64,000 nt of DNA. Source: Candidatus Babeliales bacterium. Lineage in GTDB: Bacteria > Babelota > Babeliae > Babelales > JANWKD01. Location of the stretch: positions 184,658-248,657 of the forward strand of contig OY969622.1 of the NCBI GenBank assembly GCA_963701665.1, written 5' to 3'. The translations under genes were made by a program, and so were the position numbers. The notes beneath the pieces are model-generated. The model was not told the DNA's origin, made no database searches, and saw only the letters and a list, made by a program, of their open reading frames with translations. Of this stretch, positions 2,785 to 64,000 are shown one piece after another (position 1 is the stretch's first letter; the number at the start of each line of letters is the position of its first letter).

Positions 2785-3144
2785 TTATTGGATGGTACAT
2801 CTTTTCTTAGATTTTGGCTTACGCTCATCAATTTTTTTAAAAGTTTCTATAATATTTAAAAATTCCTTAATTTCATAGTCACTTGCTTGGTATCCTGGAC
2901 CGGTCAAGATTACTTTCTTACGTAAAGGTGCAATTATTGCCTGAATGGAAGAACTTTCATCAGATAAAATTATGATGGCATCTTCATTTTTCTTCTGTGA
3001 TCTCAGAATAGATTTTATAAGCTTGTTTTCGTTTCCTTTGCAATATTCGAGTAACGCTACTTTATAGCTTTCTTCACGTCCCATCGATTGTATAGCAATG
3101 AACCATATGCTGAGGCCCAGCATACATAGTTTTTGTATTTTCAT
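2785..3144 (-). CDS. Hypothetical secreted protein
   Basis: 119-aa ORF with an N-terminal hydrophobic signal-like segment ending ...IQSM-GREE. Confidence 0.4.
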   Translation of the reverse strand: MKIQKLCMLGLSIWFIAIQSMGREESYKVALLEYCKGNENKLIKSILRSQKKNEDAIIILSDESSSIQAIIAPLRKKVILTGPGYQASDYEIKEFLNIIETFKKIDERKPKSKKRCTIQ

Positions 3145-3236
3145 AGTCTTAAAGATTTTTATAAAATTTTATTGATTGGTTATTTTTTTTACTTTTGATA
3201 CTTTAAAAAAAGTACATTACAAAGGAGTTTTTATCC

Positions 3237-4952
3237 ATGCGCTTTTTTCTCCTTATGTTAACAGCATGCCTGCTAACTGGCCTAAATGCAATACTGCCGC
3301 CATTTTTACAGCATAAAAATATATGGGCGGAGCAAATGTTAAAATCAATGACGCTTCAAGAAAAAATAGGGCAACTCTTTGTTGTTGCTGCGGTGTCAGA
3401 TTTCGAGCAACCTAATGAAATTCTTGCAAGTTCTTTGATGGCATCGCCGTATATAATGGATGAAGAACATGTCGCTACGCTCATTGAAAAATATCATGTT
3501 GGCGGTGTTATTTTTTTATATAAAAGTACGCCGCAAAAACAATTAGCACTTACTGCAACATTTCAAAAGCTCTCAAAAATTCCTTTGTTGATTGTTCAAG
3601 ATGCAGAATGGGGATTGAGCATGCGCTTGGATAAAGATCCCTCTACCGTTGTACGCTATCCTAGAAATATGACCCTGGGTGCACTCGCTGATGAAAAACT
3701 TATGTATAGCTATGGGTACGAAGTTGGACAACAATGTGCTGCTCTGGGAGTACATTTAAATTGTGCTCCCGTCGTTGATGTTAATTGTAACCGCAACAAT
3801 CCTGTTATTCATGATCGTTCTTTTGGCGATGATCCTCACCATGTTGCACAATATGGAGAGCTTTTTGCACGGGGGTTACATGATGCAAGAGTGCTTGCAT
3901 GCGCAAAACATTGTCCTGGTCATGGAGATACCTTTATTGATTCGCATTTGGCTTTGCCTACCATTGATCATGATCGTGAACGACTTGACGCCGTTGAGCT
4001 TGTATCATTTAAAAAATTAATCCACGAAGGTGTTGCGAGCATTATGATGGGACATCTTTCAGTCCCTGCGCTTGATGAAACATGTCAGCCCGCAAGTGTG
4101 TCTCATACAATCGTTACTGATTTTTTGAAACATGAACTTGGCTTTGAAGGTTTGGTGATTACCGATGGACTTGGCATGAAAGCCCTCACCAACTACTATC
4201 AACCCGGGGATTTGGAATTAGCGGCTTTTTTAGCTGGCAATGATATTTTGTTGTGTCCGCTTGATGTCCCTGGTGCCATCGCGCGTATTGAAGAGGCCAT
4301 TAGAACGCGCGTTGTTTCTGAGCAAGATCTTGATGAACGCGTGCTTAAAATTTTACAAGCCAAAGCGTGGGTATTTGAAAAGCAAAAACAATTTCATGAA
4401 ACGCGCGTGGAAAGTGTTGAAGATTTTTTAGTGCGTCCGGATGCGCGTGCATTACAAGAAACATTATACCGCAATGCGCTTACCTTTGTTAAAAAAGACG
4501 AAACTATGCAATTTGGCCCCGAGTTATTGAATAATGCTTGTCTCATTTCCTTTGGGAGTTCATCGCCAGCAACATTGTTAGAAAAACTTAAAGAACACGG
4601 TGCAACTTTTTTGAACTATCCATTAGCATGTGATGCTGATATCATCAATGAAATTATGGAAAAAACGCAGAGTGTGCCGGATGTTATTATTACACTCGCC
4701 AGCCTAACTAGGAATGTTGATCAAAATTTTGGTATTCCTTCTGAGCTGAGAAATCTTATTGCAGCTTTAAAAAGTGCTGGTAAGCGAGTGCATAGTATTG
4801 TTTTTGGTACGCCCTATAGTGTACCGCTCCTCGATAATGGCGATACATTGCTCGTTGCCTACGAGGAAACTGAGGCAGCACAAGATGCAGTTGGTGATGT
4901 GTTACTCGGTGCTTACCAACCAACGGGCAAACTACCTGTCAATCCATATTAG
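3237..4952 (+). CDS. Glycoside hydrolase family 3 beta-N-acetylhexosaminidase (NagZ-like) with C-terminal extension
   Basis: GH3 motifs KHCPGHGDT, GLVITDGLGM and FGDDP. N-terminal signal-like segment. Confidence 0.8.
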   Translation: MRFFLLMLTACLLTGLNAILPPFLQHKNIWAEQMLKSMTLQEKIGQLFVVAAVSDFEQPNEILASSLMASPYIMDEEHVATLIEKYHVGGVIFLYKSTPQKQLALTATFQKLSKIPLLIVQDAEWGLSMRLDKDPSTVVRYPRNMTLGALADEKLMYSYGYEVGQQCAALGVHLNCAPVVDVNCNRNNPVIHDRSFGDDPHHVAQYGELFARGLHDARVLACAKHCPGHGDTFIDSHLALPTIDHDRERLDAVELVSFKKLIHEGVASIMMGHLSVPALDETCQPASVSHTIVTDFLKHELGFEGLVITDGLGMKALTNYYQPGDLELAAFLAGNDILLCPLDVPGAIARIEEAIRTRVVSEQDLDERVLKILQAKAWVFEKQKQFHETRVESVEDFLVRPDARALQETLYRNALTFVKKDETMQFGPELLNNACLISFGSSSPATLLEKLKEHGATFLNYPLACDADIINEIMEKTQSVPDVIITLASLTRNVDQNFGIPSELRNLIAALKSAGKRVHSIVFGTPYSVPLLDNGDTLLVAYEETEAAQDAVGDVLLGAYQPTGKLPVNPY

Positions 4953-7700: not shown

Positions 7701-7704
7701 AAAA

Positions 7705-7730: not shown

Positions 7731-7752
7731 TTTAACAATTAAAGTTCAAAAA

Positions 7753-8586
7753 TTATAATGCTTTGAGGTATGCAATTCGTTGATCCATGGTTGGATGAGT
7801 ACCGTACAATTCGCCTAATTTTGTGAAAGGCATCCAGAGCAGTTTACTTATCTTTGCTATGAATCGTTTAACAAAAAAACGAGAATCTGGATCTTCGGTG
7901 TGATCTTTAAAATTGACAAACAAATCGATTATGCCCTGCTTATCTTTCATCGTTTTCGCAGCTTGAACATCCGCCTCTTTTTCGCAGAACTGTGAAAATT
8001 GAGCATTAGCAAGTACAAAGCCACCAATGGCAGCGATATAACTTGCAAATGCAGCTACTTTTCTATTATCCGCAGGATTATCCATGACGTTCGAAGACCA
8101 ATTACAAATTGGTAATGTCAGTGCAACGGTGAGGAGGAAAAAGAGAACTTTTTTGGGAACATGATTACATTTGATATGCATAAGTTCGTGGCGAACGAGA
8201 CCTTGTTTTTCTCCATCTGATAAAGATCCAAGCCATTCTTCGCTTATAAAGAGCCAAGCGTGTGATTTGCCACCAAAAATAGATGGCACAACAAAGGCAT
8301 TCATACGTCCCATAGCGTGTTGTGCCATGTTACTCATGCCGCGCATTTCAATACAATAATCATCCATGCCTAATTCATGTATGATGGCATTAATGTACGT
8401 TTGCGTACTTTCTTTCAGGGCGTGAAATCCATACGATTCCCATCCCAAAAAATCGTAAACTTCTCTCATGGAGTCTTCATAATCCGTCAATGGTTTGCTT
8501 GGAACGGCTTCAGGGCGATTGGGATTTTTAGCAGCATGGGTTAGTGAAAAAAGGCAAAGGCCAATAATAAGAAAAATTTTTTTCAT
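7753..8586 (-). CDS. M48-family zinc metallopeptidase (HtpX/Ste24-like)
   Basis: HExxH motif (HELMHIKCNH), hydrophobic segments after the motif, and a C-terminal GTHPTMDQRIAYL block typical of M48. Confidence 0.7.
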   Translation of the reverse strand: MKKIFLIIGLCLFSLTHAAKNPNRPEAVPSKPLTDYEDSMREVYDFLGWESYGFHALKESTQTYINAIIHELGMDDYCIEMRGMSNMAQHAMGRMNAFVVPSIFGGKSHAWLFISEEWLGSLSDGEKQGLVRHELMHIKCNHVPKKVLFFLLTVALTLPICNWSSNVMDNPADNRKVAAFASYIAAIGGFVLANAQFSQFCEKEADVQAAKTMKDKQGIIDLFVNFKDHTEDPDSRFFVKRFIAKISKLLWMPFTKLGELYGTHPTMDQRIAYLKAL

Positions 8587-18057: not shown

Positions 18058-19074
18058 TTAAGCATTTTCATCTGCAGCTAATGGCTGTATGATTTTTAAA
18101 TTCCCTGTAAGTCTTGCTTGTGCTTTAAGAGCAGCTTGCTCCGATAATGTATCTTCTAAAATAGTGGGTAAAGGCCGCGGTGAACCATTTTCTTCATCGG
18201 TGGTAGGGTCATCAAGATTTACATATCCTCCTACGCGGGGTGTGCCAGTTTGAGGCCGGGAAAGAGCGTTTCTGAATGATCCCTTTTTTCTTTTTTTCTT
18301 GTGCTTTTTCTCTTTTGTTATTTTTTCTTTGCCTTTGTTTCTTGACTCTTTTTCTTGCTCTTTTTCTTTAAAAAAATCTCTAGGTGAAGCAAGCTCTAGT
18401 GAATGTCTTTTGCGTGGGGAAATTTCTACTTGATTAAATGCATCCATAAGAGAATCAAGTTTTTTATTAATATTATGTGAGTGATCATCCCTAGTATCGA
18501 TACTCTTTACCACCGTTAATAGTAGTAGTCTGGTTTGCTTTACGAATTCATCATTTTTTCTAAATTTTTCATTGATCCTTTTGATTGCTTTTTTTAACGA
18601 TTCGCCCTCGAGTTCTTCATCCATAAAAGTTTCAACGACGAGTAATTCTGCATGCAAATCATTGATCTTGCGGTTATCAGGATTCAATGCTTGTAGTTCG
18701 CCTATAGAAAGCGCATTTGCTACAATTCTTTCATCCTGTTCCTGTAATCTTGCGTTAACTTTATGGCTCAATTGATTTAGATTAATTACATCATCGCGGA
18801 TAGGTACAATTTCGGCTTTTGTCGCCGTCTTTTTGCCAAATAACCATGATCGAATGCCGATATATGTTTCAATAAAACAACAGGTGCCAACTAAAAATGC
18901 TGGTATTTTTATTGCCAAGTGTGCTTCATCAAATTTTTTAATACAATCCTGCCAGACTTGCGTAATCTGTTCACTTGAAAACGAATCCTTTAGGGTATCA
19001 AAAAACTGCATTCCTTGCAGTGATGATGCATATGAGAAAATGATAAAAAACGATGCGATTAGAAATTTTTTCAT
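18058..19074 (-). CDS. Hypothetical secreted coiled-coil protein with lysine-rich low-complexity region
   Basis: Signal peptide ending SSLQGM-QFF, a second hydrophobic helix, and a KEKEQEKESRNKGKEK... tract. Confidence 0.5.
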   Translation of the reverse strand: MKKFLIASFFIIFSYASSLQGMQFFDTLKDSFSSEQITQVWQDCIKKFDEAHLAIKIPAFLVGTCCFIETYIGIRSWLFGKKTATKAEIVPIRDDVINLNQLSHKVNARLQEQDERIVANALSIGELQALNPDNRKINDLHAELLVVETFMDEELEGESLKKAIKRINEKFRKNDEFVKQTRLLLLTVVKSIDTRDDHSHNINKKLDSLMDAFNQVEISPRKRHSLELASPRDFFKEKEQEKESRNKGKEKITKEKKHKKKRKKGSFRNALSRPQTGTPRVGGYVNLDDPTTDEENGSPRPLPTILEDTLSEQAALKAQARLTGNLKIIQPLAADENA

Positions 19075-21520: not shown

Positions 21521-22210
21521 TTATTGGCGAGATTGCCACAAGGAATGGGCGAACCAACCGGATGCGACGCCCGCAACGCCCACAGAGCATGCGACTAAAG
21601 GGGTTTGATACCTCTTAAACCAGTTTTCCTTAGGCTTAATAGGTTCTGCTTGCAGTTGTTTACAACGCGAACATGATGTGGGCTCAGGTTCTTTGACTTC
21701 GAAACTTCGTAGGGGAGGATAATTGTTGTCATCTTCTTCTTCAGACGTTTCATCTTTGCGTGGTGGTAAAAGTCCCTTATACGTTACATACTGTGTTTTC
21801 ATTTTTTTTTCTCTCTTTTTGCGAATCTTTTCTTGCTTCATTGCATGCTGAACTGCTCTTTTTTCCAACCGACGAATATCCCATTCTATGGTGGGTTCTT
21901 CAAGAGAATTGTTGAAATTTAGCCTGGGAAGAAATTGATCTAAGGTGCTATGTTCTTCAATAGGCGTTTGAGAAACAACTTTGATGGTTATAGTGCATTT
22001 ATCGAGATGTTTAAACACTAAATCTACCGTTGTATCTTGGTGAGCAGCAATTTCTTGTACTTTGCCATATAAAAAATCTGAACAAAATGGAAAAAAATAA
22101 GCAGCTGTTTTAGGATTTAAGCGTGCGATATATTTTTTATTTGTTTGCATTGGCAATAGTGTACATGAGAAGAGAAGCGCGATTAATAATAAAAGCATTT
22201 TCTTTTTCAT
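21521..22210 (-). CDS. Hypothetical signal-peptide plus C-terminal-anchor protein (array member 1)
   Basis: Signal peptide ...TLLPM-QTNKK and a C-terminal TM (VACSVGVAGVASGWFAHSLW). Confidence 0.5.
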   Translation of the reverse strand: MKKKMLLLLIALLFSCTLLPMQTNKKYIARLNPKTAAYFFPFCSDFLYGKVQEIAAHQDTTVDLVFKHLDKCTITIKVVSQTPIEEHSTLDQFLPRLNFNNSLEEPTIEWDIRRLEKRAVQHAMKQEKIRKKREKKMKTQYVTYKGLLPPRKDETSEEEDDNNYPPLRSFEVKEPEPTSCSRCKQLQAEPIKPKENWFKRYQTPLVACSVGVAGVASGWFAHSLWQSRQ

Positions 22211-22221
22211 GTTAGCCTTTC

Positions 22222-22665
22222 TTATTGTTTGTTGTTTTCAAACCAATAAACGAGTGCAGCAGCCGTAAAAGCTCCTGTCGCAAAAGCTACCGCAGCGGTC
22301 GTACGGGGATATTTATCGATGTATGGCACTTCAAGAATGTATCTCTCATTGTCATTATCTATCTTGAGTTCTTGATGGCGCCAGCCAATTTGCATCATAT
22401 ATTTCCACACGCGGGTTAATTCTTTATCACGCAAACTGACATACCACGTAGATCCTTGTGTAGTTGAAATGCGCTTAAAATTTTCTTGTTCAACCGGGAG
22501 CCAAATAGTTTCGTTGCCAAGACACGTTGAGCATAGAGCAATCTGAGTAGGATAAACTTCTGTTGGGGCAGCAGACTTTTTTTTGAACCAACTCATGGCT
22601 GAAGTATGGATAGGCGCAAGCAAAAATAAACTAAATAGTATGCATAAAAATTGATTTTTCATCAC
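22222..22665 (-). CDS. Hypothetical signal-peptide plus C-terminal-anchor protein (array member 2)
   Basis: Signal peptide ...HTSAM-SWF and a C-terminal TM (AAVAFATGAFTAAALVYWF). Confidence 0.5.
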   Translation of the reverse strand: MMKNQFLCILFSLFLLAPIHTSAMSWFKKKSAAPTEVYPTQIALCSTCLGNETIWLPVEQENFKRISTTQGSTWYVSLRDKELTRVWKYMMQIGWRHQELKIDNDNERYILEVPYIDKYPRTTAAVAFATGAFTAAALVYWFENNKQ

Positions 22666-22768: not shown

Positions 22769-23686
22769 TTACTGTTTACTGCCAAAATAACCAGCAGCAG
22801 TGCAAACAACTGCGGTAGTAAGCACCGCGCTTGCAAGAATTGTTTTTGGATGTCGAACAATGAGAGATTGTGTTTCGCGCATCTCCTGGTGGCCAATTAT
22901 TATGCCTGCGCCAAAATACAGCAAATTGTTTTCATCTAAATCCCTTTTAATTTCCAGTGGCGGAATAATTCGCGTTTTTTCTTGCCCCATATGAAGCTCA
23001 TCGGCAATTTGTTGTTGCTTGAATATACGAGCTAAGGCTGGTGCTAGTTCATCGATATTGAGAGCAACGTGCGTGTTATCTTTATTTTTAATATTTTTTC
23101 TATAATGTTTTACTCCTAAATCAACAGAATGCAATTCTACTTCGTTGCCATCGTGTCCCGGGGAATAGACTGAGATGGCGGTTGGTATTTCTTGCTGCCC
23201 TTTTAAAAATCCTGCGTGATGATACATCTTATTATTCAAGGATATAATCGTCTCAATTTCTTCTGGAATATTACATTGATTGTTGTTTTGTTGTGGATTT
23301 AATGCTTTGTCTTGCAATGTTGTAAAAAGGCGTTCAAAAAGGGGTCCTAATGTATTGATATCAAGTAAAATTTCAATTTCGCCACCGCCTTGGAGAAAAG
23401 CTTCACGGTTTAACTGAATACGATCCCAATTTTTTAATTCATGCTCTTGCGAATATATTTGGATACTTATTGAAGATACTTTTGGTTTTTTTTCATAACC
23501 AGGTTCATCATTGTTGACTGCTTTAATATCGTCTGGGGTGAAAACCCAACTTGAGAATCCTCCCGTTGACATACGTAAATCACTTTCAGGAGCGACTTCT
23601 CCAACTGCTTCATCCATTGCGTCTAGGGTTGTAAAAGCGTTTGCAAACAAACCCCCCGCTATCACGATGAAAAAAAGTTTTTTCAT
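22769..23686 (-). CDS. Hypothetical signal-peptide plus C-terminal-anchor protein (array member 3)
   Basis: Shares IKA(V/I)NNDEPGY(E/D)..PK with member 4. C-terminal TM (ASAVLTTAVVCTAAGYF). Confidence 0.55.
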   Translation of the reverse strand: MKKLFFIVIAGGLFANAFTTLDAMDEAVGEVAPESDLRMSTGGFSSWVFTPDDIKAVNNDEPGYEKKPKVSSISIQIYSQEHELKNWDRIQLNREAFLQGGGEIEILLDINTLGPLFERLFTTLQDKALNPQQNNNQCNIPEEIETIISLNNKMYHHAGFLKGQQEIPTAISVYSPGHDGNEVELHSVDLGVKHYRKNIKNKDNTHVALNIDELAPALARIFKQQQIADELHMGQEKTRIIPPLEIKRDLDENNLLYFGAGIIIGHQEMRETQSLIVRHPKTILASAVLTTAVVCTAAGYFGSKQ

Positions 23687-23698: not shown

Positions 23699-24103
23699 CT
23701 ATTTTTTTCCAGCGAGACCACGAATATAAAAATCGCGACTGAAGTCCTCAAATGTTTCTCGCAGTGCAACAGGAATTTTATTTGATTTTGCACTATTTGG
23801 CGTGTAGGATTCTTCTCGATATGCGTCGCAAAGCTTAGCAAAAATTGGCAGTACCAGCTCAAGAGGAAGCTTGATGTGTTCTTGTCCCTGTTCTACGGAA
23901 AAATGTTTCTCATCTAAGGGGATACTAAGCGATGGATATTCAACAATAGTAATAATCTTTTTAGGATTACTATCATAACCTGGTTCATCATTGTTAATGG
24001 CTTTAATGTTTGGACGGGCATTTTTTGTTTCCATCGCATCTATTTTTGCAAAAACAGTTATCAATAAACTACCTAATGTGAAAATAAAGAAAAATTTTTT
24101 CAC
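23699..24103 (-). CDS. Hypothetical secreted protein (array member 4, short, no C-terminal anchor)
   Basis: Signal peptide ...KIDAM-ETK and the IKAINNDEPGYDSNPKK block shared with member 3. Confidence 0.5.
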   Translation of the reverse strand: MKKFFFIFTLGSLLITVFAKIDAMETKNARPNIKAINNDEPGYDSNPKKIITIVEYPSLSIPLDEKHFSVEQGQEHIKLPLELVLPIFAKLCDAYREESYTPNSAKSNKIPVALRETFEDFSRDFYIRGLAGKK

Positions 24104-38114: not shown

Positions 38115-38447
38115 TTAGTCAGTTTTTTCTTTTTGATCAAACGAATCGTTTGCTTTGAAAGGTTCTCCTGTGCGTATGCCAAAAACTGTAAACGTACCAA
38201 TAGTAAACGCAAGTAGAGTTGCCAAAGGATTACCGAAAATGTGATGAGCGACACATGCTGCCGATGCGCCTCCGCCGCAACTTGTCGCATAGTCAACTGC
38301 TAACTCACAACAAGGATCATTATCATCTTCAATGACATCCGTGAAAATTGGGAGTAGAACTTTTTGATCGCGTGGGATTCCATTATGCATGCAAAAAGTT
38401 GTATTGAGCGTTAACAAAAATATAAAAACGAGCGCCAATTTTTTCAT
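38115..38447 (-). CDS. Small Cys/Gly-rich signal-peptide plus anchor protein (paralogue of 37642-37962)
   Basis: Start at MKKLALVF. Shared signal peptide, acidic patch and Cys/Gly-rich hydrophobic core. Confidence 0.5.
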   Translation of the reverse strand: MKKLALVFIFLLTLNTTFCMHNGIPRDQKVLLPIFTDVIEDDNDPCCELAVDYATSCGGGASAACVAHHIFGNPLATLLAFTIGTFTVFGIRTGEPFKANDSFDQKEKTD

Positions 38448-40345: not shown

Positions 40346-40355
40346 GGAAAAGAAA

Positions 40356-42051: not shown

Positions 42052-42426
42052 TTATGTTCTTGGATTAATGGTAGGAGCATTAATGTGCCATTGCACTGTT
42101 CCGTTAACACCAGGAGCTGGTTTTGTAGTAAGCTCAATAGTGGCATCATCACATATTATTACAGGTACTTTTCCTTCATTATTAAAATCTCCACCATCGG
42201 TATTATACTTAGTAATATCAGTTCCTGGTTCCCCTTCAAAAAGCCTTATAAATTTAGCACATCGATTTCCACCTGCATTTAATTGTGCAGTTTTCCCCGG
42301 CTGGATAGCATCCTTGGTAACTAATGTTTCCACAAACTTATTACGATTATCTCTTCTGTATACATCGATGGCAACTTTTACAGAGCGACTACCGCTATTT
42401 TTAATAGTAAAATTTGCCCCATGCAT
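42052..42426 (-). CDS. Hypothetical small secreted protein; N-terminal signal peptide appears frameshifted
   Basis: The ORF starts within ...SGMHG. An ATG at 42473 encodes MKTIVIVLYY* in another frame, and one base of shift would give MKTIVIVL-LLLATFSGMHG... The stop codon abuts the IS5 right IR. Confidence 0.4.
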   Translation of the reverse strand: MHGANFTIKNSGSRSVKVAIDVYRRDNRNKFVETLVTKDAIQPGKTAQLNAGGNRCAKFIRLFEGEPGTDITKYNTDGGDFNNEGKVPVIICDDATIELTTKPAPGVNGTVQWHINAPTINPRT

Positions 42427-44543: not shown

Positions 44544-45122
44544 ATGCTTAAACAAATTTTTGTAGCATTCTTATCTTTAACTAACTTGTCATATGTTCCT
44601 GATACCAAAAGAATTTTGGATCATCATGAAGTCCATGATCAGCAAAAACATTTCAATCATGACAGTTTTCTTACGTCTTGGAACGATGCTAGCTTTAATA
44701 TGGAAAGCGCGATGAGCATTGCTTTTGAGAGGTATAAAAATAATCTGATAGAGCAACAAGAAGCGAAAACAGATAACTATGATACAACAAGAGAAGAACA
44801 AGCCTTAGAAAAATTAGCATCTGAAAATTTAGTTCCGGGTACTATTCGTGTGCGATACCATAATGGACGAGGATATATAAGCTCGTATCTTCAATTAGAA
44901 AATAGTTATTGTTGGCATTATGGTGACTGCTTTCCTACATTGTATCTGCACAATGAAAAAAAATTATCCAATCAAGCAGATACATTAAAAACATTAATTT
45001 CTGCTGAAAAAAAACCAAAAGTGACGGTATATTTAAGCCGTAAACGTCCTTTACAATTTTCCCAATCTAAAAAAATCTTATATTCAATAGATTTAGATTT
45101 TACAAAATCCATCGAGTGTTAA
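44544..45122 (+). CDS. Hypothetical protein
   Basis: 192-aa ORF with a weak N-terminal hydrophobic segment. Confidence 0.4.
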   Translation: MLKQIFVAFLSLTNLSYVPDTKRILDHHEVHDQQKHFNHDSFLTSWNDASFNMESAMSIAFERYKNNLIEQQEAKTDNYDTTREEQALEKLASENLVPGTIRVRYHNGRGYISSYLQLENSYCWHYGDCFPTLYLHNEKKLSNQADTLKTLISAEKKPKVTVYLSRKRPLQFSQSKKILYSIDLDFTKSIEC

Positions 45123-46474
45123 ATTAAACTTTGGAATTCTTGCCCATCAAATTCTTGAACGCCGTGGTCCACCTGTAGAGTAAGCGTTGATGGCGAATGA
45201 TTAGCGCGTGCAAAGCTTTCAAATGCGCCCAATGGGTTTGTATGCCATCCAACTTTTATAGCAGTGTATCCTGTTGTATTTTCAGGTTTCTCAAATTTAT
45301 GTCTTTTTTGTTGTAGTATGCCTAAAAGCGTGTGGATGTATGCTACTTGATTTTGTTGATGATTGATTGAACAGAGCAGAGAAATAAAATTATCAATCTG
45401 TCTCATCATTTTTTTTGATTTTTGCGTAGGCAATGCTGTGTCATCAATCTTTGCGTCTCTTTGTGCAATGAAAATAGCATTCATATCGCTAAAATCTATC
45501 TTGGTTGCATGTTGCTGATTAAGCCCCTTGTTCAAGAAAACAATATAGGCTTCTTTTGCTTGATGGAGCAAGTTTGGTGCAGTGATTTGTTCTTTATTGC
45601 CAGGATCAATGGCAATAACTAAATGATTTTTTATGGGATTAATTTGTTTAAATTCGAAAAATCCTGAGGTATCTGAAAAAACGTTGATGTTGGTTGTGAT
45701 GCCATTATTTTGAAGATGTGTTCGAAATTCATGAAACAATGAACGGCATTCATTATTTTCGCTATATGCTTTATCAAAGCAATATAATCTTTGATGTTGA
45801 TACCCTCTTTTGCCAAGGATATAGGAAAGCAAATATTCGCTTAAAAGCAGGCCACTTCCAAAATACTCGCCCGAAAGAGGTTGATGAGCGGTGCACTGAT
45901 CAGAAGGAAATAATGTTGGTAGTTTTGAAATGACTTTGAGTGTACAACCAATTTTATCGTATAAGGTTGCTTTTGTGCACGTACATGTCGCTAGTTGGCG
46001 TTCTTCGGCTGGTAGATGAAATTTTTGAAACAATAATTCAACGCAATAATCTTTAATAGTTTCTTGTATTTCTCGAGAGTCTAGGGTGATGTCTGGATAA
46101 CGATCGTACAAGGGTACGATTTTTCTGAATTGTTTCTGTGCGAATGTTTTATAAAAAATATGTGCTAAAAATAGTTTTGTTGTTTCAGGATCATCTTGAA
46201 ACAACGGTAATAATCCATTCGCTTTAATTTCTTTTTTTTTGAATGATAGGATGTTCTTATCATCAACATCTTCTAGTGCATACTTTTTAAAAGGGGCTTG
46301 CGCAACCATAGAGGCGCGCAATTTTTTATAGAGCATATCGACTGATCGTATGCCCTTGTTATATTCGCAGCAAGTCTTACATTCGGGTTCAGACTCCATG
46401 CTTTTAAGTGATGCTGTAAACAATACAATAAGAATTAATACGTGGGATGCGAAAAGTAGAGGTGTTTTTTTCAT
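45119..46474 (-). CDS. Hypothetical secreted protein
   Basis: 451-aa ORF with signal peptide ...ASLKSM-ESE. No family recognised. Confidence 0.5.
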   Translation of the reverse strand: MKKTPLLFASHVLILIVLFTASLKSMESEPECKTCCEYNKGIRSVDMLYKKLRASMVAQAPFKKYALEDVDDKNILSFKKKEIKANGLLPLFQDDPETTKLFLAHIFYKTFAQKQFRKIVPLYDRYPDITLDSREIQETIKDYCVELLFQKFHLPAEERQLATCTCTKATLYDKIGCTLKVISKLPTLFPSDQCTAHQPLSGEYFGSGLLLSEYLLSYILGKRGYQHQRLYCFDKAYSENNECRSLFHEFRTHLQNNGITTNINVFSDTSGFFEFKQINPIKNHLVIAIDPGNKEQITAPNLLHQAKEAYIVFLNKGLNQQHATKIDFSDMNAIFIAQRDAKIDDTALPTQKSKKMMRQIDNFISLLCSINHQQNQVAYIHTLLGILQQKRHKFEKPENTTGYTAIKVGWHTNPLGAFESFARANHSPSTLTLQVDHGVQEFDGQEFQSLI

Positions 46475-48245: not shown

Positions 48246-48788
48246 ATGAAATATCCAGTATATTTTTCGCTTGTTGTTTTTTGTTTAGTTCATTCTTATA
48301 GCCTTGGCATGGATGCAGCACTCGCACTTCTTTATCATCCGTCATCAACACAATCAGCATCAAGCCGTTATACATATCAGCCCAATCCTGGCATGGATAT
48401 TTCATCAGAAAAAATAAAAGAGAATGCGCAACAATTTTTGGATCATGTGGATGCTTTTAAAGCCCGCGCAGAAAAAATATTGGATATGGAAAATACTCAT
48501 CTTTCGAGAGATCAAAGAACATATTTACTAAATTATATGGCTAGATGCACGAGTATGCGCGTTAGCGTATCTGAAGAGCCGAAATGCGTTTACGAAAAAA
48601 TATGCCAATTCTCTGCAAGTAGTAACGATGACAATTTTTGGAAAGAATTAGCGAAAAAGAGAAATATTGATCAGCCGATTTTTTCTAGTCATGAAAAACA
48701 AAGATCGGCTTTATATCAATTATTCGAGCAGTTCAAAAAAGAGCGATTGATCATTGAAGTCCTTAAATCAAATAAATCGGCTCTTTAA
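48246..48788 (+). CDS. Hypothetical secreted protein (tandem paralogue 1)
   Basis: Signal peptide ...YSLGM-DAA. The F(L/I)..(V/L)D(A/G)FK..AEK(I/T)LDM... block is shared with 48807-49337. Confidence 0.5.
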   Translation: MKYPVYFSLVVFCLVHSYSLGMDAALALLYHPSSTQSASSRYTYQPNPGMDISSEKIKENAQQFLDHVDAFKARAEKILDMENTHLSRDQRTYLLNYMARCTSMRVSVSEEPKCVYEKICQFSASSNDDNFWKELAKKRNIDQPIFSSHEKQRSALYQLFEQFKKERLIIEVLKSNKSAL

Positions 48789-52063: not shown

Positions 52064-53458
52064 TTAATCTTTTTTGGCTTTAGATAAGATTATAACGTTT
52101 TCTGACTTATCCTCTTCACAGTGATGAATGAGCACGTATTTATCGTCAACATTAACGATTGATTTTATCGGATGATTCGAAATACTTACGTTGCCTGGAT
52201 CATTAAATCCATCCCGCGCATTATATAGTTTTAGTTGGCCTTTGCTTGTTCCTGCTAGAAGGAGTTCATCATTAAAAGATGTAAGGGATGTCCATTGTTC
52301 ATCTTTTTCTGATGGGAGTGTAAACAGTGTGAGTGTTCTTGCTGGTGTTTTATCGAGCTCAAAGCGAACTAGTTTTTTGCCAAGGAGCCCAATTAAATGA
52401 TCCTGGAAGCATGCAAGGCCTTGAATAGCATCTTCAAGTTCTTCAATTCGTCTGAGACAGTTGCCTGTTGCTGTGTCCCATTTTTTTAAACTACGATCCC
52501 GTGCAGCAGAATAAGCACATTTTTTAAGGGCAAGCAGCGCTGTAATGGCACCATTGTGTTGTTCAGAAAACTCTTTTTTACTTGACGTTTCTCCAGATTT
52601 ATCATGAGGCAAATCATGTTTTATTATGACTCCCTTAGGTGTTCCTTCTAAAATATAGGAAGGAATCTCTTCTTCATTATACGAAGTGAAAAAGGCACAT
52701 AGAGGCGGTTTTGAATGGGATGAAATTATGCTTATTTTTAGATTCTTTAGCGGTGTAATCATGAGCGATTCAGTTTTTAATGTACTGGTAAAGGGGCAAA
52801 AAAGAACTGGGCGATCAGGAAAGCCTAAAGTCTTTTGCCATGTTCCCAGCGCATTTCTTTTTGTTGTATAGCAATCTATTTCACCATTCTGTTTTGCGGC
52901 AAATAGATCATGACCTTTCATAGTAACGAGAGTTGATAGTGCTTGTAATGGAACTTCACTATAAGCTTTTAAATGGTAATCCTCATAAAGATCTTTTTTT
53001 TGAGCTTTTTCAGCTTTTTTTAGTCGCGGACTTTGAACTATGTTAAAATGAAATTCTTTGTTGGTAAATAAAGAACCATCTATTTTTTTAAACTTTTTTT
53101 CTTCATGTGAAGGTAGTGCAATCGAGGTTAGTTGGGGATTTTGTTTCGTTAAGTATAAGCATCGTTCACGATATACGCTTGCCATGGCACCTTCTTTGAA
53201 ATATTGTTTATAATGATTGACTAATTTTTCATAGAGCATATTGGCAAGCTCAACCCTATCCAAAGTAATTGCCGTATGGATACAATCTTCGATGCAATCA
53301 AATTGTGTGGGCAGAGAACGTTCGTGAATGGCAGAATCTAATAGTTCTAGTATTGTAGATTCATCTGCTTGATTTTGCATGATAGAGATAACAAATTCGC
53401 TAAAACTTGGATCATGAAACATAGTTGAATCATGCAGCAGCTTTTTTCTTCTTCCCAT
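52064..53458 (-). CDS. WD40/beta-propeller-like protein, main body (paralogue of 53695-55512); probably 5'-truncated by a frameshift
   Basis: The C-terminal half has propeller-like repeats (e.g. AYSAARDRSLKKWD). Architecture parallels the neighbouring WD40 gene, but the signal peptide sits in the overlapping ORF 53347-53622. Confidence 0.55.
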   Translation of the reverse strand: MGRRKKLLHDSTMFHDPSFSEFVISIMQNQADESTILELLDSAIHERSLPTQFDCIEDCIHTAITLDRVELANMLYEKLVNHYKQYFKEGAMASVYRERCLYLTKQNPQLTSIALPSHEEKKFKKIDGSLFTNKEFHFNIVQSPRLKKAEKAQKKDLYEDYHLKAYSEVPLQALSTLVTMKGHDLFAAKQNGEIDCYTTKRNALGTWQKTLGFPDRPVLFCPFTSTLKTESLMITPLKNLKISIISSHSKPPLCAFFTSYNEEEIPSYILEGTPKGVIIKHDLPHDKSGETSSKKEFSEQHNGAITALLALKKCAYSAARDRSLKKWDTATGNCLRRIEELEDAIQGLACFQDHLIGLLGKKLVRFELDKTPARTLTLFTLPSEKDEQWTSLTSFNDELLLAGTSKGQLKLYNARDGFNDPGNVSISNHPIKSIVNVDDKYVLIHHCEEDKSENVIILSKAKKD

Positions 53459-53622
53459 GAAAATTCTTCTTTTTCTTTAGCCCCTTTTTTTCTTTGGCCA
53501 GGCGCTTCTTCTTTTTCATCCCATGCATAATAAACATTACCATCCTCTCCTTCCTCCATGCCAAAAAGATTTATGGTGCCCAGTAGTATTACTGCAAGAG
53601 TAAGAAGAATATTTTTTTTCAT
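53347..53622 (-). pseudogene. Signal-peptide-encoding 5' fragment, out of frame with 52064-53458 (split at an A6 tract)
   Basis: Encodes MKKNILLTLAVILLGTINLFGM-EEGED...FSWEEEK, then runs out of frame. One extra A in the run at 53443-53448 would read ...WEEEKKLLHDSTMFHD, continuous with the downstream ORF. Confidence 0.5.
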
Positions 53623-53694
53623 ATAACTTCCTTTTTTGAACAAATCTATTCATGAAATTCAAATTACTGAATTTTTCCGAGACGATGCAAGACA

Positions 53695-55512
53695 TCACTC
53701 GTTTTTTTGCTTTGGCAAAAGCATAAAAAGTGTGAGTTGTTTATCTTTATAGGGCAGTTCTTGAAGGGCCATTATTGCGGTGTGATTTTTAGTGAGTTTT
53801 GTGATGGGTACATTTCCCCCTAGTGGAATCTCCCGAATATAATTGCCACTTTCTGGATTCCAAACAAGTAGAGTTCCATCTTTATGCCCGGTCAATGCAT
53901 ATTGTTTATAACCAACAATGCTTAAGATGGGCATTAGTATTTCTCTGGTTCTTGTTTTTTTAAATTCCTGAACTATGTTTTTGTCTTTTTTCTCTTTACC
54001 TTTATTGTTAGATTTTTTTCCTTCTAGCGTGGATTCTTGCCATATTTCTAAATAACGCTGACGAGATAAAGAGACTAAAAAATTTGGTTGTACCTTCGCA
54101 AGTCCATCAAGAGAGCCTACATCGCTTTTGAGTGTTTGAAGACATTGTTCCTTAAGAAAATCCCAAATTTTAATCGATCCATCGCGAGAAGCTGAGGCAA
54201 GAAGATGCTGTTTGCCCATACCCGAAGGATTTTTCTTTGTTTCCCAGCATGGATTGTGTATGGTTCTGTGTAAAGTAACTAACGCTGTGACAGCATCAGT
54301 ATGCCCAATCAACTTGCGTACTACTTGACCCTTATGATTGTCAACAACAATTTTGCCGGATTTTTTGTCCCCTCTTTTTCCTCGGAAATAAAGTGTCATT
54401 GGTTGCTCTTCCCCTGCATCCGTCATAACTAAAAACCAACCAACTAAGGCAGCCGTTGGAACATATCTAGGTTTTGTTGTAAGAACATGAATTGAAGGGT
54501 CCTTTTTCTTTTGAGCTGCCATATGATACCTAACTTTTGCATCAGTTGGTTTTTTAAGTATTTCAAATTCTTGCTTATTAACATCATGAAAAAAAATTCC
54601 TCGTCGAGTGGCAGCAATAAGCTGTGAACTATGTTTCGGTACCGTATAGCATACGATATCCTGTGGCAGCGTAAGGTGTAGCGGGTCATTTTCCCAAAAT
54701 TCCTTGGTACGTTCATAATGAGCCTTAAGATCTCTAAGAGATTTACAAGAACTCTCAAGGAATCTTACCGAACGAGGGGTTTTAGTAGATCTGAGAGTAG
54801 CGCTGCTAAATTGTGAAAGGGTTCTATCAAGGGGAAGATAATCAGATTGCTTGTATTTACTCATAAGATCGCCCAGTTGTTGTTGAGTTTCAGGAGCAAC
54901 ATAAGGAACAATATAAGTATCGAAAATTGTGTTAAGCTCTTTAATAAGTTTTTTTCCAATATCCTGCGCTTGAAAGTGTGTTTGATAAATTCTAATTATA
55001 TTATTCCATAAATAACAAACAATTTTGGAAGAAGCATCAAGATTGTTATAAAGAATAGTTATATATTGGTTGATTTGGTCTTGAGGACTTAAGCGAGATA
55101 ATTGATCAATGAGTCTATTAAATTCATCGTAATATTCTCTAATTTTTTTTTCTTGTGCGAGCTTCTCTAAACTTCTTATGAATTCATTAAAATCGGTAAT
55201 TTCTTTTGTTGGATCCAATAATTCGGTATGCACATCTTCTTCGGTTAATAACAATGTGCTAACTTTTTTTTTATTTTTTTTACGACTTCTACTTTTTTTA
55301 CGATTTTTGCGCTCGTCTTCTTCTTCACTTGTAGTAATAGGTTTTGCTGCTAATTTAAGTGCGTAGGTGATTTTTCTTTGCTCACCAGTGTCTTTATCGG
55401 TTTTTATGATTTCTATACTTTTAGTATTCATGCCAAAAAGAATAGTGTTAAAAAGAAATGTTAGGATGCATAATCCGGTGAATATTTTTTTTTGTAAAAA
55501 AATGGGATTCAT
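53695..55512 (-). CDS. Secreted WD40-repeat protein
   Basis: Signal peptide ...ILFGM-NTK and a charged low-complexity tract. The C-terminal WD40 repeats include a canonical LLASASRDGSIKIWD and GHKDGTLLVWN. Confidence 0.65.
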   Translation of the reverse strand: MNPIFLQKKIFTGLCILTFLFNTILFGMNTKSIEIIKTDKDTGEQRKITYALKLAAKPITTSEEEDERKNRKKSRSRKKNKKKVSTLLLTEEDVHTELLDPTKEITDFNEFIRSLEKLAQEKKIREYYDEFNRLIDQLSRLSPQDQINQYITILYNNLDASSKIVCYLWNNIIRIYQTHFQAQDIGKKLIKELNTIFDTYIVPYVAPETQQQLGDLMSKYKQSDYLPLDRTLSQFSSATLRSTKTPRSVRFLESSCKSLRDLKAHYERTKEFWENDPLHLTLPQDIVCYTVPKHSSQLIAATRRGIFFHDVNKQEFEILKKPTDAKVRYHMAAQKKKDPSIHVLTTKPRYVPTAALVGWFLVMTDAGEEQPMTLYFRGKRGDKKSGKIVVDNHKGQVVRKLIGHTDAVTALVTLHRTIHNPCWETKKNPSGMGKQHLLASASRDGSIKIWDFLKEQCLQTLKSDVGSLDGLAKVQPNFLVSLSRQRYLEIWQESTLEGKKSNNKGKEKKDKNIVQEFKKTRTREILMPILSIVGYKQYALTGHKDGTLLVWNPESGNYIREIPLGGNVPITKLTKNHTAIMALQELPYKDKQLTLFMLLPKQKNE

Positions 55513-60759: not shown

Positions 60760-61049
60760 AGTTTCTCCTAAACAAACTAAAAACAATGCTTTGCTTAAGG
60801 TGTGCTCGAGACGATTTTTTGCAATCTTAGACACAATATAATCTTCGAGATGTATTTGTCAATTACCTATTTTTCCCTGGGGGCCAATGAACGTGATTAT
60901 AGGCATTATATGGGCTTAAAAATGGCCTTATTGGGGGGGAAAGGGGGGCTATCTGAAAATATATGGCAACCCTTACTGTTTAAAATTGACAAATATAAAA
61001 TATAAGGTATTCTATAGGTATACCAAGCATTATAGAGAATGGAGTTTTT

Positions 61050-63608
61050 ATGAATAAAAATATAGTTTTTTTGATGTTTTTAACCTGTTTTACAGGTTTA
61101 TTCGCTATGGAAGATCGTTCTAAACCTCAGTCTAATACCATTGAGCAAAGGCCGACACCATATCAATTTTTAGGTATAGATAAAACAGCAGAGGCAGGGG
61201 ACATAAAGAAATCCTATGTTCAATTAGCAAAACAGTATCATCCTGATAAAGCTAAGGGTGATACAGCTGTGGCAGCAGAGTATTTCAAAGTAGTACAATA
61301 CGCTTATGAAGCACTTACCAAAAACAATGCAATAAACACAGAGCATGCTAAAAATGATTGGCAAGATTGGGTCAATGAACCCGCAAATATGATGATTAAA
61401 TCGGCGGCAGAAAAACTACAGGCTGAAATTAAACAAAATCTTGATAATAATCAGAATTTGGTAACTATAAAAAAATTAATATTTGATGCGTGTACTTATT
61501 ATGAGACGCATCTTTCGTGGGTTGATACGACAAGCCAAAAACTTTTAAAGCGTCTAATGATCGAAAATTATGTTGAACTAACAAGAAGAGTAATAAGAAC
61601 TAACGATGCAGGTGCGCAAGGAGAAGTATATGAGGCATTCATAAGAATACGCCCTCATATAAACGATATTGAGGCAGACTTAAAAGAAATAGATAAGTTA
61701 CTTGATGCATGTCGAGCAAAACGTGATGCGGGCAAAAAAAATCTTCAGCCAAAGTCGAATCAGACGAGTGTTGCTTTCATGGATTCTGGGGATCTTTATG
61801 CTATTTTGGAGATAAGCCCTCTTGCAAACCAAGAAGAAATAAACAATGCCTTTCTAAAATTGCAGACAAAATATAAGCCTTATTCATTTGCAGAAGGATC
61901 GCAAGAACGTAAGCGAGCAGAATACCAATTTAAGCCGATCTGGGATGCATTTGATACATTGGGTAATAAACAAAGAAGAGCTATCTACGATAAAAAAAGA
62001 TTAAAAGCATTTGATACTTCCGCACAAAATACAGAACAACCTTCGAGAAAAAGACCCTCAGAGAATGATGGAAAAAATGCTCGCCCTGAAAAATTCGCAA
62101 AGCAAGATAATACTCAAAAGTCTTCAAAAGATGACGAAAATATAAAGAAATTAATAAATGCGATAAACAGTGAAAATAATGCCGTGGATAACTATATAAC
62201 AAACATGGGACGCAGCGAAAATATTGAACTTAATCCCCATGAATTTTTTGAAAAAATTTGTCAGCAATATAATAAAACATTGAAGTTTCTTACTGCTACT
62301 ACAAAACATGCCGATTTTTTACAACAATATAAGGACCTTGCCGATGTAATTAATGAAACAAGCAAAAACTTTTATAGTGCTGCCAATTTTGTATATGAAA
62401 AAGGCAAAGATAAGGGATGGTTCTTATATTCGCTTCAGAAAGCATGTGAACTGAACGAGCTTGCATTACAGTGTGCAAAGTATTTGCAATCAATTGAAGG
62501 TGAAAAAATTATGGAGAGTTGCCGCAAGCAACACAATGTTTTTATAAAATACTTAATTGATTTATACGAAAGTTTTGATTATTTAGAGCTGTTTTTTACT
62601 GATTTATCTATTCCAGTGCATTATCGTAATAATACATTCACCATTTTAAAAGAAGATTGTAAAAAAGAGGAATTTTCAGTTTTGAAAGAAAAATTGCCTA
62701 AGCTTTCCTATAGCATCGCTGAACATTATTTTAACCAAGGATTATATGAAGATGCAAAAAAACTGGTTATTGCTCTTATTCGAGGCAACATGACAAGAGA
62801 CAGAACAAGGTTAAGAAAAAGCAAAGATTTATTAAATAAAATTAAAGCTGCGTCTGCAGCTAAAATGGAGCAAGAAAGTGTTTATTTCTTGAATCGGTTT
62901 GAAAATGATACTCACGCGCTGAGTAATGTAATTAGATCTTATAAAATTAATAAGTCTAATGATGAGCAAACGCTATTAGCAATTCGCAACAACTGCAAAC
63001 AATATGTTGATTTCATTTGGTCGAATCGCGAGCAGACTCTTTCGCCTCAAACGTATACAAATATTCTGGATAATTGTATGCAGATCATGCATGATTTACA
63101 GGAAGCAAAGCTATTCTATCCTGAATGCATAGAGCTAGTATCCCTTTGTCTCAATTTCCCTTGGAAAAACCCAGAGATTCTTAAAGAAAGTATAGAGCCC
63201 ATGAGTAATTATGCTCTTGGAGCGATACTTTCTGAAGTACAATTCACACCAGAGGATTTGAAAGATGATAAAAAATTATCGTCACTCGCTCAGAAAATGC
63301 TTTCTGAAAATCAATGTAATTTTTTTGTTAGAACGTTAGGATACATTCGTTCTCCGAATACCTATGAAAGTGCTACCAATGCTATTCTTAAATGTTACTT
63401 TGCTTTAGCCGAACAGTTGAGCGATCATGGTAATTATTCTGATGCACTTTTAATGCTTGATACTGCGATGCTGCGATATCGCATGGGTAGTTTACGAGAA
63501 AATTTTGAGAGTTTAAAAGCTCAGGTATGCGTATTACAAGACTTGCAAAATCCAACTAGCTTTGATGAAGACGAATTATTAAAAGAACTGTTTGAACAAC
63601 ATAATTGA
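61050..63608 (+). CDS. Secreted J-domain (DnaJ-like) protein with a second degenerate J-like domain and long helical C-terminal region
   Basis: The signal peptide ends ...GLFAM-EDR. J domain 1 has HPD (YQFLGIDKTAEAGDIKKSYVQLAKQYHPDK). J-like domain 2 lacks HPD (LYAILEISPLANQEEINNAFLKLQTKYKPYS). Confidence 0.7.
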   Translation: MNKNIVFLMFLTCFTGLFAMEDRSKPQSNTIEQRPTPYQFLGIDKTAEAGDIKKSYVQLAKQYHPDKAKGDTAVAAEYFKVVQYAYEALTKNNAINTEHAKNDWQDWVNEPANMMIKSAAEKLQAEIKQNLDNNQNLVTIKKLIFDACTYYETHLSWVDTTSQKLLKRLMIENYVELTRRVIRTNDAGAQGEVYEAFIRIRPHINDIEADLKEIDKLLDACRAKRDAGKKNLQPKSNQTSVAFMDSGDLYAILEISPLANQEEINNAFLKLQTKYKPYSFAEGSQERKRAEYQFKPIWDAFDTLGNKQRRAIYDKKRLKAFDTSAQNTEQPSRKRPSENDGKNARPEKFAKQDNTQKSSKDDENIKKLINAINSENNAVDNYITNMGRSENIELNPHEFFEKICQQYNKTLKFLTATTKHADFLQQYKDLADVINETSKNFYSAANFVYEKGKDKGWFLYSLQKACELNELALQCAKYLQSIEGEKIMESCRKQHNVFIKYLIDLYESFDYLELFFTDLSIPVHYRNNTFTILKEDCKKEEFSVLKEKLPKLSYSIAEHYFNQGLYEDAKKLVIALIRGNMTRDRTRLRKSKDLLNKIKAASAAKMEQESVYFLNRFENDTHALSNVIRSYKINKSNDEQTLLAIRNNCKQYVDFIWSNREQTLSPQTYTNILDNCMQIMHDLQEAKLFYPECIELVSLCLNFPWKNPEILKESIEPMSNYALGAILSEVQFTPEDLKDDKKLSSLAQKMLSENQCNFFVRTLGYIRSPNTYESATNAILKCYFALAEQLSDHGNYSDALLMLDTAMLRYRMGSLRENFESLKAQVCVLQDLQNPTSFDEDELLKELFEQHN

Positions 63609-63645
63609 TACTAAAGGGAGCCTGAATACTTAAAATGGAGTTTTT

Positions 63646-64000
63646 ATGAATAAAAATATAGCTTTTTTGATGTTTTTATCCTGTTTTACAGGGTTATTTG
63701 CTATGGAAGAGCGCCCTCGGGCCCAGTTCGTTGCATTGACCCCTTATGATTTTTTAGGCCTCGACAAAACAGCAAAACCTGAAGATATAACAAAAAGTTA
63801 CAGAAAATTAGCATCTGTAATTCATCCCGATAAATCTAAAAAGCCCATGGCTGAAGAGTGCTTCAAAGCAATTTGTAATGCTCATGAAGTGCTTGGCGAC
63901 GATAAAGTGAAAGCTTATTACGATGAGCAGGATTGGCAAGGTTGGACAAATCCTGCATCCAGTACTGTAGTGGATAGTGAAGTTATGAAGATACATGCCC
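63646..64000 (+). CDS. Secreted J-domain protein, tandem paralogue of 61050-63608; 3' end beyond the window
   Basis: Not in the track because it has no stop within the window. Hand translation gives MNKNIAFLMFLSCFTGLFAM-EERPRAQFVALTPYDFLGLDKTAKPEDITKSYRKLASVIHPDKSKK... The RBS/start context (aatggagtttttatgaataaaaatata) is identical to the upstream gene's. Confidence 0.65.
   Translation, partial: MNKNIAFLMFLSCFTGLFAMEERPRAQFVALTPYDFLGLDKTAKPEDITKSYRKLASVIHPDKSKKPMAEECFKAICNAHEVLGDDKVKAYYDEQDWQGWTNPASSTVVDSEVMKIHA

Follow-up and report, generated by a model that had tools for sequence, protein, structure and literature searches.

In the Bacteroidetes, the so-called Q-rule places Gln at P1', the position directly after the cut, in substrates of signal peptidase I (SPase I), the residue being cyclised to pyroglutamate (PMC5837995, PMC10653852). 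The Dependentiae (TM6) are parasites of protists and form a widespread phylum with hardly any cultured members. Signal peptides have been reported for up to 44% of their genes, the function of most of the products not being known (PMC6561590), and the published picture is one of host-directed proteins exported via Sec and, in Babela, via a type II system (PMC4378268, PMC6561590), the sole secretion system reported for that organism (PMC4378268). Here we describe a 64,000-nucleotide stretch from a Candidatus Babeliales bacterium (contig OY969622.1, positions 184,658 to 248,657; hereafter the window, meaning this whole stretch), in which the leaders of many predicted exported proteins end in a small residue followed by Met and a polar residue. 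Judged from the sequences, this junction Met most likely represents a variant SPase I cleavage site specific to the lineage, which may be called a 'Met rule'.

The first-pass annotation of the window had listed about 20 junctions of this type after signal peptides, and all 20 quoted strings were found at the genes named. Nineteen of them follow a genuine leader, in which an n-region of the MKK type precedes an uncharged core of 10-20 hydrophobic residues and Met stands at precursor position ~20-28 (Table 1). The remaining string, FSGM-HGA, was rejected as an example, since the sequence upstream of its open reading frame (ORF) contains neither a start codon nor a hydrophobic core and the ORF is flanked by an IS4/5 transposase on one side and a serine recombinase on the other, identifying it as the leaderless remnant of a motif protein. 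LLPM-QTN is a weak example in which Pro, not a small residue, precedes Met. By manual count, the [small]-Met-[polar] junction is present in 19 of the ~33 leader-bearing ORFs of the window (~58%), and the observation that recognisable envelope and housekeeping exported proteins go without it holds for the GH3, GH1, M48 peptidase, YncE-type propeller and PLD proteins encoded here.

The enrichment of Met at the junction is real and far beyond chance. Gene calls were mechanical ORFs and leaders were called with a home-made heuristic that yielded both false positives (the MsrA active site and one spurious ORF) and false negatives; a prefilter-free binomial test was based on the regular expression [LIVTASFMC]x[AGSC]M[polar], comparing residues 15-41 with the rest of the same proteins. 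In the window, matches occupied 20 of 1,917 positions at residues 15-41 versus 18 of 15,187 elsewhere (8.8-fold, p=5.9e-13). The comparison set consisted of 80 loci (1.3 Mb) from 80 species-level Babeliales genomes with FtsI identities of 43-73%, the window's own genome not being among them, and here the same test returned 150 matches and a 2.9-fold enrichment (p=4e-28). Four 50-kb segments of Escherichia coli K-12 (200 kb), processed with the same scripts as a control, gave 0.9-fold, which is not significant. With the crude leader detector, Met lies at most 10 residues from the end of the hydrophobic core in 21 of 38 window proteins, against 17% expected. The dipeptide [AGSC]M after the core is 22.8-fold over background in the window, no other residue coming close to Met in enrichment behind a small one, and it is the top dipeptide after the core in the Babeliales loci as well (111 of 662 leaders, 8.9-fold). 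The corresponding '[AGSC]X' statistic for Met in E. coli is 4.0-fold with n=5, a noisy small sample in place of which the prefilter-free test was used. The motif occurs in all four FtsI-identity quartiles of the Babeliales loci, in 13-19% of leaders, and with its spread over the 80 loci it is lineage-wide; at ~58%, the lineage of the window employs it unusually heavily.

The residues around Met follow the (-3,-1) rule of SPase I. A sequence logo of 127 proteins anchored on Met (median Met position, 22) shows L 31%, I 19% and T 10% at P3, followed by A, V and S, a column of 1.2 bits that is not imposed by the selection of the proteins. P1 is A (38%), G (28%), S (19%) or C (16%), P2' is mostly polar (E 37%, D 13%, Q 10%, N 8%), and there is almost no information downstream of P2'. 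Overall, the residue after Met is D, E, N or Q in 68% of cases, hydrophobic in 7% and permissive for methionine aminopeptidase (MetAP) in 13%. The small residue at P1 is likewise unforced, with A, G, S or C preceding 61% of all Mets near the end of the core versus ~23% of Mets elsewhere. Placing the cut before Met puts an allowed residue (L/I/V/T/A/S/G/C) at P3 in 83% of proteins and a charged or aromatic one in 6%; cleavage after Met was rejected on the same register test, with P3 allowed in 40% and disallowed (charged, aromatic or amide) in 57%. The detector and manual reading agree on the leader architecture expected of Sec/SPase I substrates, with a charged n-region (mean charge of the first 8 residues, +1.5) and an uncharged core within the first ~30 residues, and Met-bearing and Met-free leaders are alike in median length (21) and composition. 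P1 is small and P3 small or aliphatic and uncharged, as in a typical site; at P1', Met stands in place of the residues usual there (Ala, Gln, Asp, Glu, Gly and others). SPase I is generally held to accept most P1' residues other than Pro, so Met at this position is an unusual choice, not a disqualifying one.

Unusual it is: the proposal that Met is foreign to standard sites agrees with the verified Gram-negative SPase I substrates, in which Met is found 0/307 times at P1' and 0/307 times at P1 (PMC2638155). A position-specific scoring matrix (PSSM) built from these 307 sites (PMC2638155 supplement 2), with the P1' column omitted, placed its best site directly before Met in 10 of 19 window proteins and 42 of 111 Babeliales proteins (chance ~3%; next most frequent offset, 9). 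Cleavage probably falls between the small residue and Met, to judge from these patterns, leaving Met-Glu, Met-Asp, Met-Gln or Met-Asn at the N-terminus, and we infer that the cut is made by standard LepB; a motif search for LepB across all ORFs examined returned none. The proposed sequence of events is that an ordinary Sec leader would be cut by SPase I before Met, putting Met at P1', and that the exported protein would then open with one of these four dipeptides.

Two further observations concern the composition of these leaders. Cys is strongly over-represented in and at the end of Babeliales leaders, 5.6- to 12.5-fold at logo positions -8, -7, -2 and -1, and its 16% share of P1 in the motif leaders compares with 0% in the reference Gram-negative set. 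In the protein encoded at 17476..17976 the junction motif is doubled (...QSTHC-M-QVAQ-TTHG-M-QDEE; 17881-17910, minus strand), giving two candidate cleavage sites nine residues apart.

The motif is unevenly distributed over the secretome. Of the leaders belonging to families that are conserved in 10 or more loci, 4.3% have it, versus 25.4% of locus-specific leaders (odds ratio 7.6, p=3e-13), which upholds the expected enrichment relative to conserved exported proteins; 2 of ~58 BamA orthologues have it. A Pfam analysis of 124 motif proteins was headed by ankyrin repeats (11), WD40/beta-propellers (9) and DnaJ (4), and the same analysis of 136 random motif-free leaders returned penicillin-binding proteins (19, in fact membrane anchors), BamA/POTRA (14), FtsL and thioredoxin as well as periplasmic binding proteins. 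The motif is thus strongly biased to the accessory, fast-evolving, eukaryote-like part of the secretome, where it is not universal, and it is not strictly absent elsewhere.

Within families, the Met is the best-conserved column of the region. In 53 homologue pairs below 50% identity it is retained in 64%, against ~17-30% for the mature N-terminal columns, and it persists at 21-48% identity in the J-domain and WD40 families and in the families listed under L018/L069, L034, L043/L055, L059/L072, L008 (x4), L014 (x5) and L061 (x3). For the 451-aa protein encoded at 45119-46474, 1.84 billion representatives were searched exhaustively with HMMER, which recovered nine full-length leader-bearing homologues (24-63% identity), all nine with an [S/A/G/P]-M-[E/D/Q/K] junction. 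This family has no match in Pfam or in a PDB profile search (E=0.45 at best), and its invariant C-x-C, FG[SP]G-x-LL-x-[DE]Y and IDPG-like motifs suggest that it is an enzyme. Homologue searches with the J-domain and WD40 proteins gave 4 and 2 matches, respectively. Met is present in every J-domain paralogue and orthologue seen, the leader pattern 'CF.GL..M' being kept in orthologues at 21-38% protein identity, and five tandem J-domain paralogues on a sister contig (L086) all read ...LF[A/G]-M-EER. An orthologue of the WD40 protein 53695..55512 in locus L002 (33% identity) reads ...MLLS↓M-QND. In the L031 paralogues, LYS↓M-AQP aligns with LYC↓TPQ and LYA↓ATP, that is, Met lies over P1' of an ordinary site, which suggests that Met was gained by substitution or insertion in proteins that were already exported.

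Two of these families show additional features. The two J-domain paralogues of the window share a 77-nt block (61038-61114 and 63634-63710) that is 95% identical and comprises the ribosome-binding site GGAG, the whole leader and ATG GAA GA, and the DNA flanking it on both sides has diverged past blastn recognition; the leader is either unusually constrained or homogenised by gene conversion. A 59%-identical orthologue of the WD40 protein 53695-55512 (P0126) has no leader and starts with a highly basic sequence resembling a nuclear localisation signal (MNPEIPPPQKQSSIKELIKKRKPKKRR...), which points either to a frameshift in the assembly or to a true exchange of the targeting module at the N-terminus.

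Taking these results together, we consider it rather more probable than any other account that the junction Met proteins have ordinary Sec/SPase I leaders with Met at P1', and that this is a selected, order-wide habit of the Babeliales/Dependentiae serving mainly an accessory, host-directed secretome of WD40, J-domain, some ankyrin and many orphan proteins. Several points weigh against this. The cleavage position is read from the sequence pattern; in 9 of the 19 window proteins another site scores better in the PSSM, and PSSM scores are low where P1 is G, S or C. The comparison loci all flank ftsI and several families are tandem paralogues, which inflate some counts, so that the counts are not independent. 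Among the 136 motif-free leaders there are 8 ankyrin proteins and 1 WD40 protein, effector-like proteins with ordinary sites, and the many proteins of this kind indicate that Met is not an obligatory export or stability signal. The earlier proposals of a lineage-specific processing signal and of a mark for an effector class stand in part. Met at the junction is indeed lineage-wide, but a special protease is not required, because the residues around Met fit the ordinary (-3,-1) rule and an acidic P2' is usual; and the motif is indeed biased to lineage-specific, eukaryote-like proteins, but it is not obligatory among them, sampled ankyrin proteins being about equally split between those with and without it.

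Why Met should be kept at this position is a matter for speculation, in which avoidance of host N-degrons is our preferred explanation and a cue acting after Sec, for type II secretion or vesicles, comes second. Unacetylated N-termini of the G/A/S/T/C group serve as N-degrons in the eukaryotic cytosol, as do D/E/N/Q/C/K/R/H and N-termini that are bulky and hydrophobic; signal peptidases have been noted as makers of N-degrons, and Met-Asp/Glu/Asn/Gln constitutes the NatB class of native starts (PMC11735805). The residues normally exposed by SPase I would accordingly act as degrons in the host, A, S, G, T and C through the GASTC pathway and D, E, N, Q, K, R and H through the Arg pathway, and because almost all exposed residues fall in these classes, Met followed by a polar residue would be one of the few 'safe' N-termini, inert in host cytosol and mimicking a native NatB-type start. 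We offer only tentatively, as a possibility with the odds against it, the idea that the Met-[Glu/Asp/Gln/Asn] N-terminus is an adaptation to host N-degron pathways or a true host-targeting cue. The residue profile after Met fits N-degron avoidance without proving it, both this and the sorting reading are speculative here, and NatB normally works co-translationally, on chains still growing on the ribosome (PMC11735805), which counts against the mimicry, as does the number of ankyrin proteins that lack the motif. Were it true, one residue would tell which of a phylum's hundreds of orphan exported proteins enter the host cytosol, and N-degron avoidance, if that is the reason, would link bacterial signal-peptide evolution to eukaryotic protein-turnover rules.

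A dedicated system might instead be at work, in which x-[small]-Met-[acidic] is read by a signal-peptidase paralogue, another protease or a receptor that sends proteins past the periplasm, through type II secretion, in vesicles or by host targeting of the PEXEL/RxLR kind. The class bias of the motif would suit such a system, as would the strong conservation of Met and of whole leaders within families (as in the J-domain leader) and the report of type II as the only secretion system of Babela (PMC4378268). We nevertheless regard it as unlikely, given that the ordinary SPase I rule suffices and no extra enzyme is needed, that the logo is empty beyond P2' and that many effector-like proteins do without the motif.

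Similarly doubtful is the view that the Met is a relic, the old initiator of a leaderless gene, cytosolic or host-acquired, that gained its leader by 5' extension or cassette recombination and kept the residue by inertia. The concentration of the motif in young, lineage-specific genes is in line with this scenario, as are the ease with which leaders rich in K, I, L and F are encoded by AT-rich 5' DNA, the position of the 3' edge of the J-domain 77-nt block right at the junction, the leaderless WD40 orthologue P0126 and the calling of some database homologues from the Met. A neutral relic should decay, however, yet at 20-50% identity no column is better conserved than Met, which is kept in all nine 451-aa homologues down to 24% identity. 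The residue after it (E 37%, D 13%) is also unlike the second residue (K 24%, A 14%, N 9%, E 4%, D 1%) at those cytosolic starts of these genomes that a Shine-Dalgarno (SD) sequence supports, and around it P1 and P3 are fitted to the SPase I rule. A neutral relic start codon is therefore disfavoured by Met conservation and P2' composition and retained as a possible origin; origin and maintenance are separate questions, and a relic later taken up by selection is a possible history.

The suggestion that the Met is a second in-frame start producing a leaderless cytosolic isoform did not survive analysis of ribosome-binding sites. Its attractions are that the junction codon is always ATG and that gene callers sometimes begin at or near the Met (P0133, P0130; P0001 at M9). 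An SD-like motif, however, precedes 62% of first starts, with a G peak at -9, and only 4.7% of junction Mets, compared with 8.5% of random internal Mets, and the sequence upstream of the junction Met is T/C-rich hydrophobic coding sequence with no A-rich stretch or G peak. The constraints at P1, P3 and P2' suit a protease site and not an initiation site, and it is not obvious what the bacterium itself would do with WD40, DnaJ and ankyrin effectors in its interior, leaving internal initiation very improbable. A motif at the DNA level was rejected as well, third-codon positions around the ATG being free of constraint, which places the constraint at the protein level. Finally, AT-rich DNA does translate to hydrophobic, Lys-rich peptides and the ORF calls are mechanical, but the notion that the 'leader' is untranslated 5' sequence and Met the true start, through chance, base composition or ORF calling, is effectively refuted and of negligible probability in view of the within-protein controls (p=6e-13 in the window, p=4e-28 in the loci), the mere 4% in conserved envelope proteins of the same genomes and composition, the E. 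coli control, the SD peak at -9 of the upstream start, the conservation of leaders as protein across species with synonymous and conservative changes mixed, and the tight distribution of leader length (median 21).

Public gene calls often start inside the leader or at its end: P0001 starts at Met9 relative to the J-domain gene 61050-63608, P0133 exactly at the junction Met, and P0130 and P0132 are further instances, from which it follows that automated annotation under-reports Dependentiae signal peptides. Knowledge of the junction Met improves the annotation of gene starts and cleavage sites, some genes already being mis-started at or near it, and provides a sequence handle for dividing the orphan secretome into classes.

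The window (G+C ~37%) is part of a small genome of the Dependentiae, an assignment based on the closest named relatives of its FtsI; 27 Babeliales FtsI proteins were aligned. Its housekeeping genes (MutL, FtsY, FtsI, MgtE, RNase HII) are set among insertion sequence (IS) elements, pairs of toxin and antitoxin genes and numerous orphan ORFs, and selfish elements are abundant in the region for a 1.3-Mb genome. The mobile-element junction at 41221-44388 is probably an element integrated at a tRNA gene. A second assembly of this organism, made independently and taken from Logan, is 99.985% identical to the window across 12.9 kb, the differences being two single-base indels, each of which breaks a different WD40 gene in one assembly (window 52064-53643 and 53695-55512; L001 991-4439); these are either homopolymer sequencing errors or on/off frameshifts.

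Table 1. Junction-Met proteins, contrasting leaders and other features of the window. Arrows mark the candidate cut; strand is given in brackets where recorded.
Feature	Position (strand)	Junction	Met codon	Remarks
Orphan exported protein	2785..3144 (-)	...IAIQS↓M-GREE	3082-3084	
Orphan exported protein	17476..17976 (-)	...QSTHC↓M-QVA	17908-17910	PSSM rank 1
Orphan exported protein	18058..19074 (-)	...SSLQG↓M-QFF	19009-19011	PSSM rank 1
Array gene	21521..22210 (-)	...CTLLP↓M-QTN	22148-22150	Atypical Pro at P1
Array gene	22222..22662 (-)	...IHTSA↓M-SWF	22594-22596	
Array gene	22769..23686 (-)	...TTLDA↓M-DEA	23615-23617	
Array gene	23699..24103 (-)	...AKIDA↓M-ETK	24032-24034	GTG start
Array gene	24713..25822 (-)	...HGINA↓M-HKS	25754-25756	
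Neighbour of array gene 24713..25822	24185-24634	...LHICA↓SDN		Ordinary site
Small Cys/Gly-rich protein	28407..28718 (-)	...STLHG↓M-HES	28656-28658	PSSM rank 1
Orphan exported protein	33325..33984 (+)	...FSVVA↓M-DVE	33400-33402	PSSM rank 1, score 16.3
Small Cys/Gly-rich protein	35340..35705 (-)	...QKNFG↓M-DLA	35640-35642	
Small Cys/Gly-rich protein	37642..37962 (-)	...NTTFC↓M-EKD	37903-37905	PSSM rank 1
Small Cys/Gly-rich paralogue	38115..38447 (-)	...NTTFC↓M-HNG	38388-38390	PSSM rank 1
451-aa orphan family protein	45119..46474 (-)	...ASLKS↓M-ESE	46397-46399	
Orphan exported protein	48246..48788 (+)	...SYSLG↓M-DAA	48309-48311	
Paralogue adjoining 48246..48788	48807-49337	...LVSA↓SEV		Ordinary site
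WD40 protein	52064..53622 (-)	...INLFG↓M-EEG	53557-53559	Split here by 1-base indel (53347-53622 + 52064-53458)
WD40 protein	53695..55512 (-)	...TILFG↓M-NTK	55429-55431	PSSM rank 1
J-domain protein	61050..63608 (+)	...TGLFA↓M-EDR	61107-61109	PSSM rank 1
Second J-domain paralogue	63646..64000 (+)	...TGLFA↓M-EER	63703-63705	Runs off window
Remnant ORF opening at Met	42052..42426 (-)	...TFSG-M-HGA	42424-42426	Not a valid example
M48 peptidase (contrast)	7753..8586 (-)	...SLTHA↓AKN		Ordinary leader, no Met
YncE/lactonase-type beta-propeller (contrast)	35894..37012 (+)			Ordinary leader, no junction Met
FtsI	55936-57612			Closest named relatives, 'Candidatus Babeliales/Dependentiae bacterium'
Selfish elements (coordinates and items as listed, not paired)	2158-2745; 40025-40685; 13660-14601; 31484-31879; 39375-39617			YafQ/ParD-type toxin-antitoxin; Gp49(HigB-like)/HTH toxin-antitoxin; IS110 transposase; IS200-type Y1 transposase; free-standing GIY-YIG nuclease
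IS4/5 DDE transposase	41221-42033			In mobile-element junction 41221-44388
Large serine recombinase	42677-44131			3' end overlaps tRNA-Glu
tRNA-Glu	44120-44196			
tRNA-Lys	44313-44388			Beside tRNA-Glu

No prior description of the junction Met was found in the searchable literature, which omits many subscription-journal papers, and its place is best seen by comparison with known signals. With canonical SPase I sites it shares a positive n-region, a hydrophobic core, a length of ~21, a small P1, an uncharged aliphatic or small P3, an acidic P2' (reference D 17%, E 17%; PMC2638155) and the absence of Pro at P1'. It differs from the reference in Met at P1' (0% there), in the spread of P1 over A, G, S and C (93% Ala there) and in P3, mostly L or I here versus 62% Ala. 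The lipobox recognised by SPase II (L-[ASTVI]-[GAS]-C) similarly combines Leu at -3 and Gly, Ala or Ser at -1 with one invariant residue, but Met cannot be diacylglycerylated and position -2 is occupied here by Y/N/F/H/D instead of A/S/T/V/I. It was therefore rejected, Met replacing the invariant Cys; the Cys found at P1 in 16% follows F/H/L and forms no lipobox. A twin-arginine translocation (Tat) signal was discarded too, the twin-arginine motif occurring in 0 of 127 proteins. Class III type IV prepilins (G↓F/M-x-x-x-E) can have Met after Gly at the cut, and type II/type IV-pilus-like machinery has been reported in Dependentiae, but there the hydrophobic segment follows the cut, with Glu at +5, whereas here the core precedes Met, the predicted mature protein opens with polar residues and Glu gives no signal at +5, so that this candidate was dropped.

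Outside the bacteria, the Plasmodium PEXEL (RxLxE/Q/D) and the oomycete RxLR-dEER are short motifs at the leader/mature boundary that mark host-bound proteins, and PEXEL processing leaves an acetylated xE/Q/D N-terminus. These differ in kingdom, protease and compartment; in the Babeliales leaders a single residue and its acidic or amide neighbour are constrained, and delivery to the host is putative.

By analogy, the closest counterpart is the Bacteroidetes Q-rule, of which the junction Met is an analogue and not a member. In both, a near-fixed residue directly follows an otherwise ordinary SPase I site at phylum level and would set the mature N-terminus of many exported proteins, and in the Q-rule this residue is thought to protect or stabilise the N-terminus. 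The residue here is Met instead of Gln, and a modifying enzyme is neither implied nor needed; the pairing of Gln at P1' with a glutaminyl cyclase does not describe these leaders, Gln following ~12% of candidate sites in the Met-free ones. The Q-rule covers most SPase I substrates, whereas Met is found in ~25% of lineage-specific leaders, ~58% of those in the window and ~4% of conserved envelope leaders, and the proposed Met rule is read from sequence. On the reading favoured here, it would be the second case, after the Bacteroidetes Q-rule, of a lineage rewriting P1' of the otherwise universal SPase I site.

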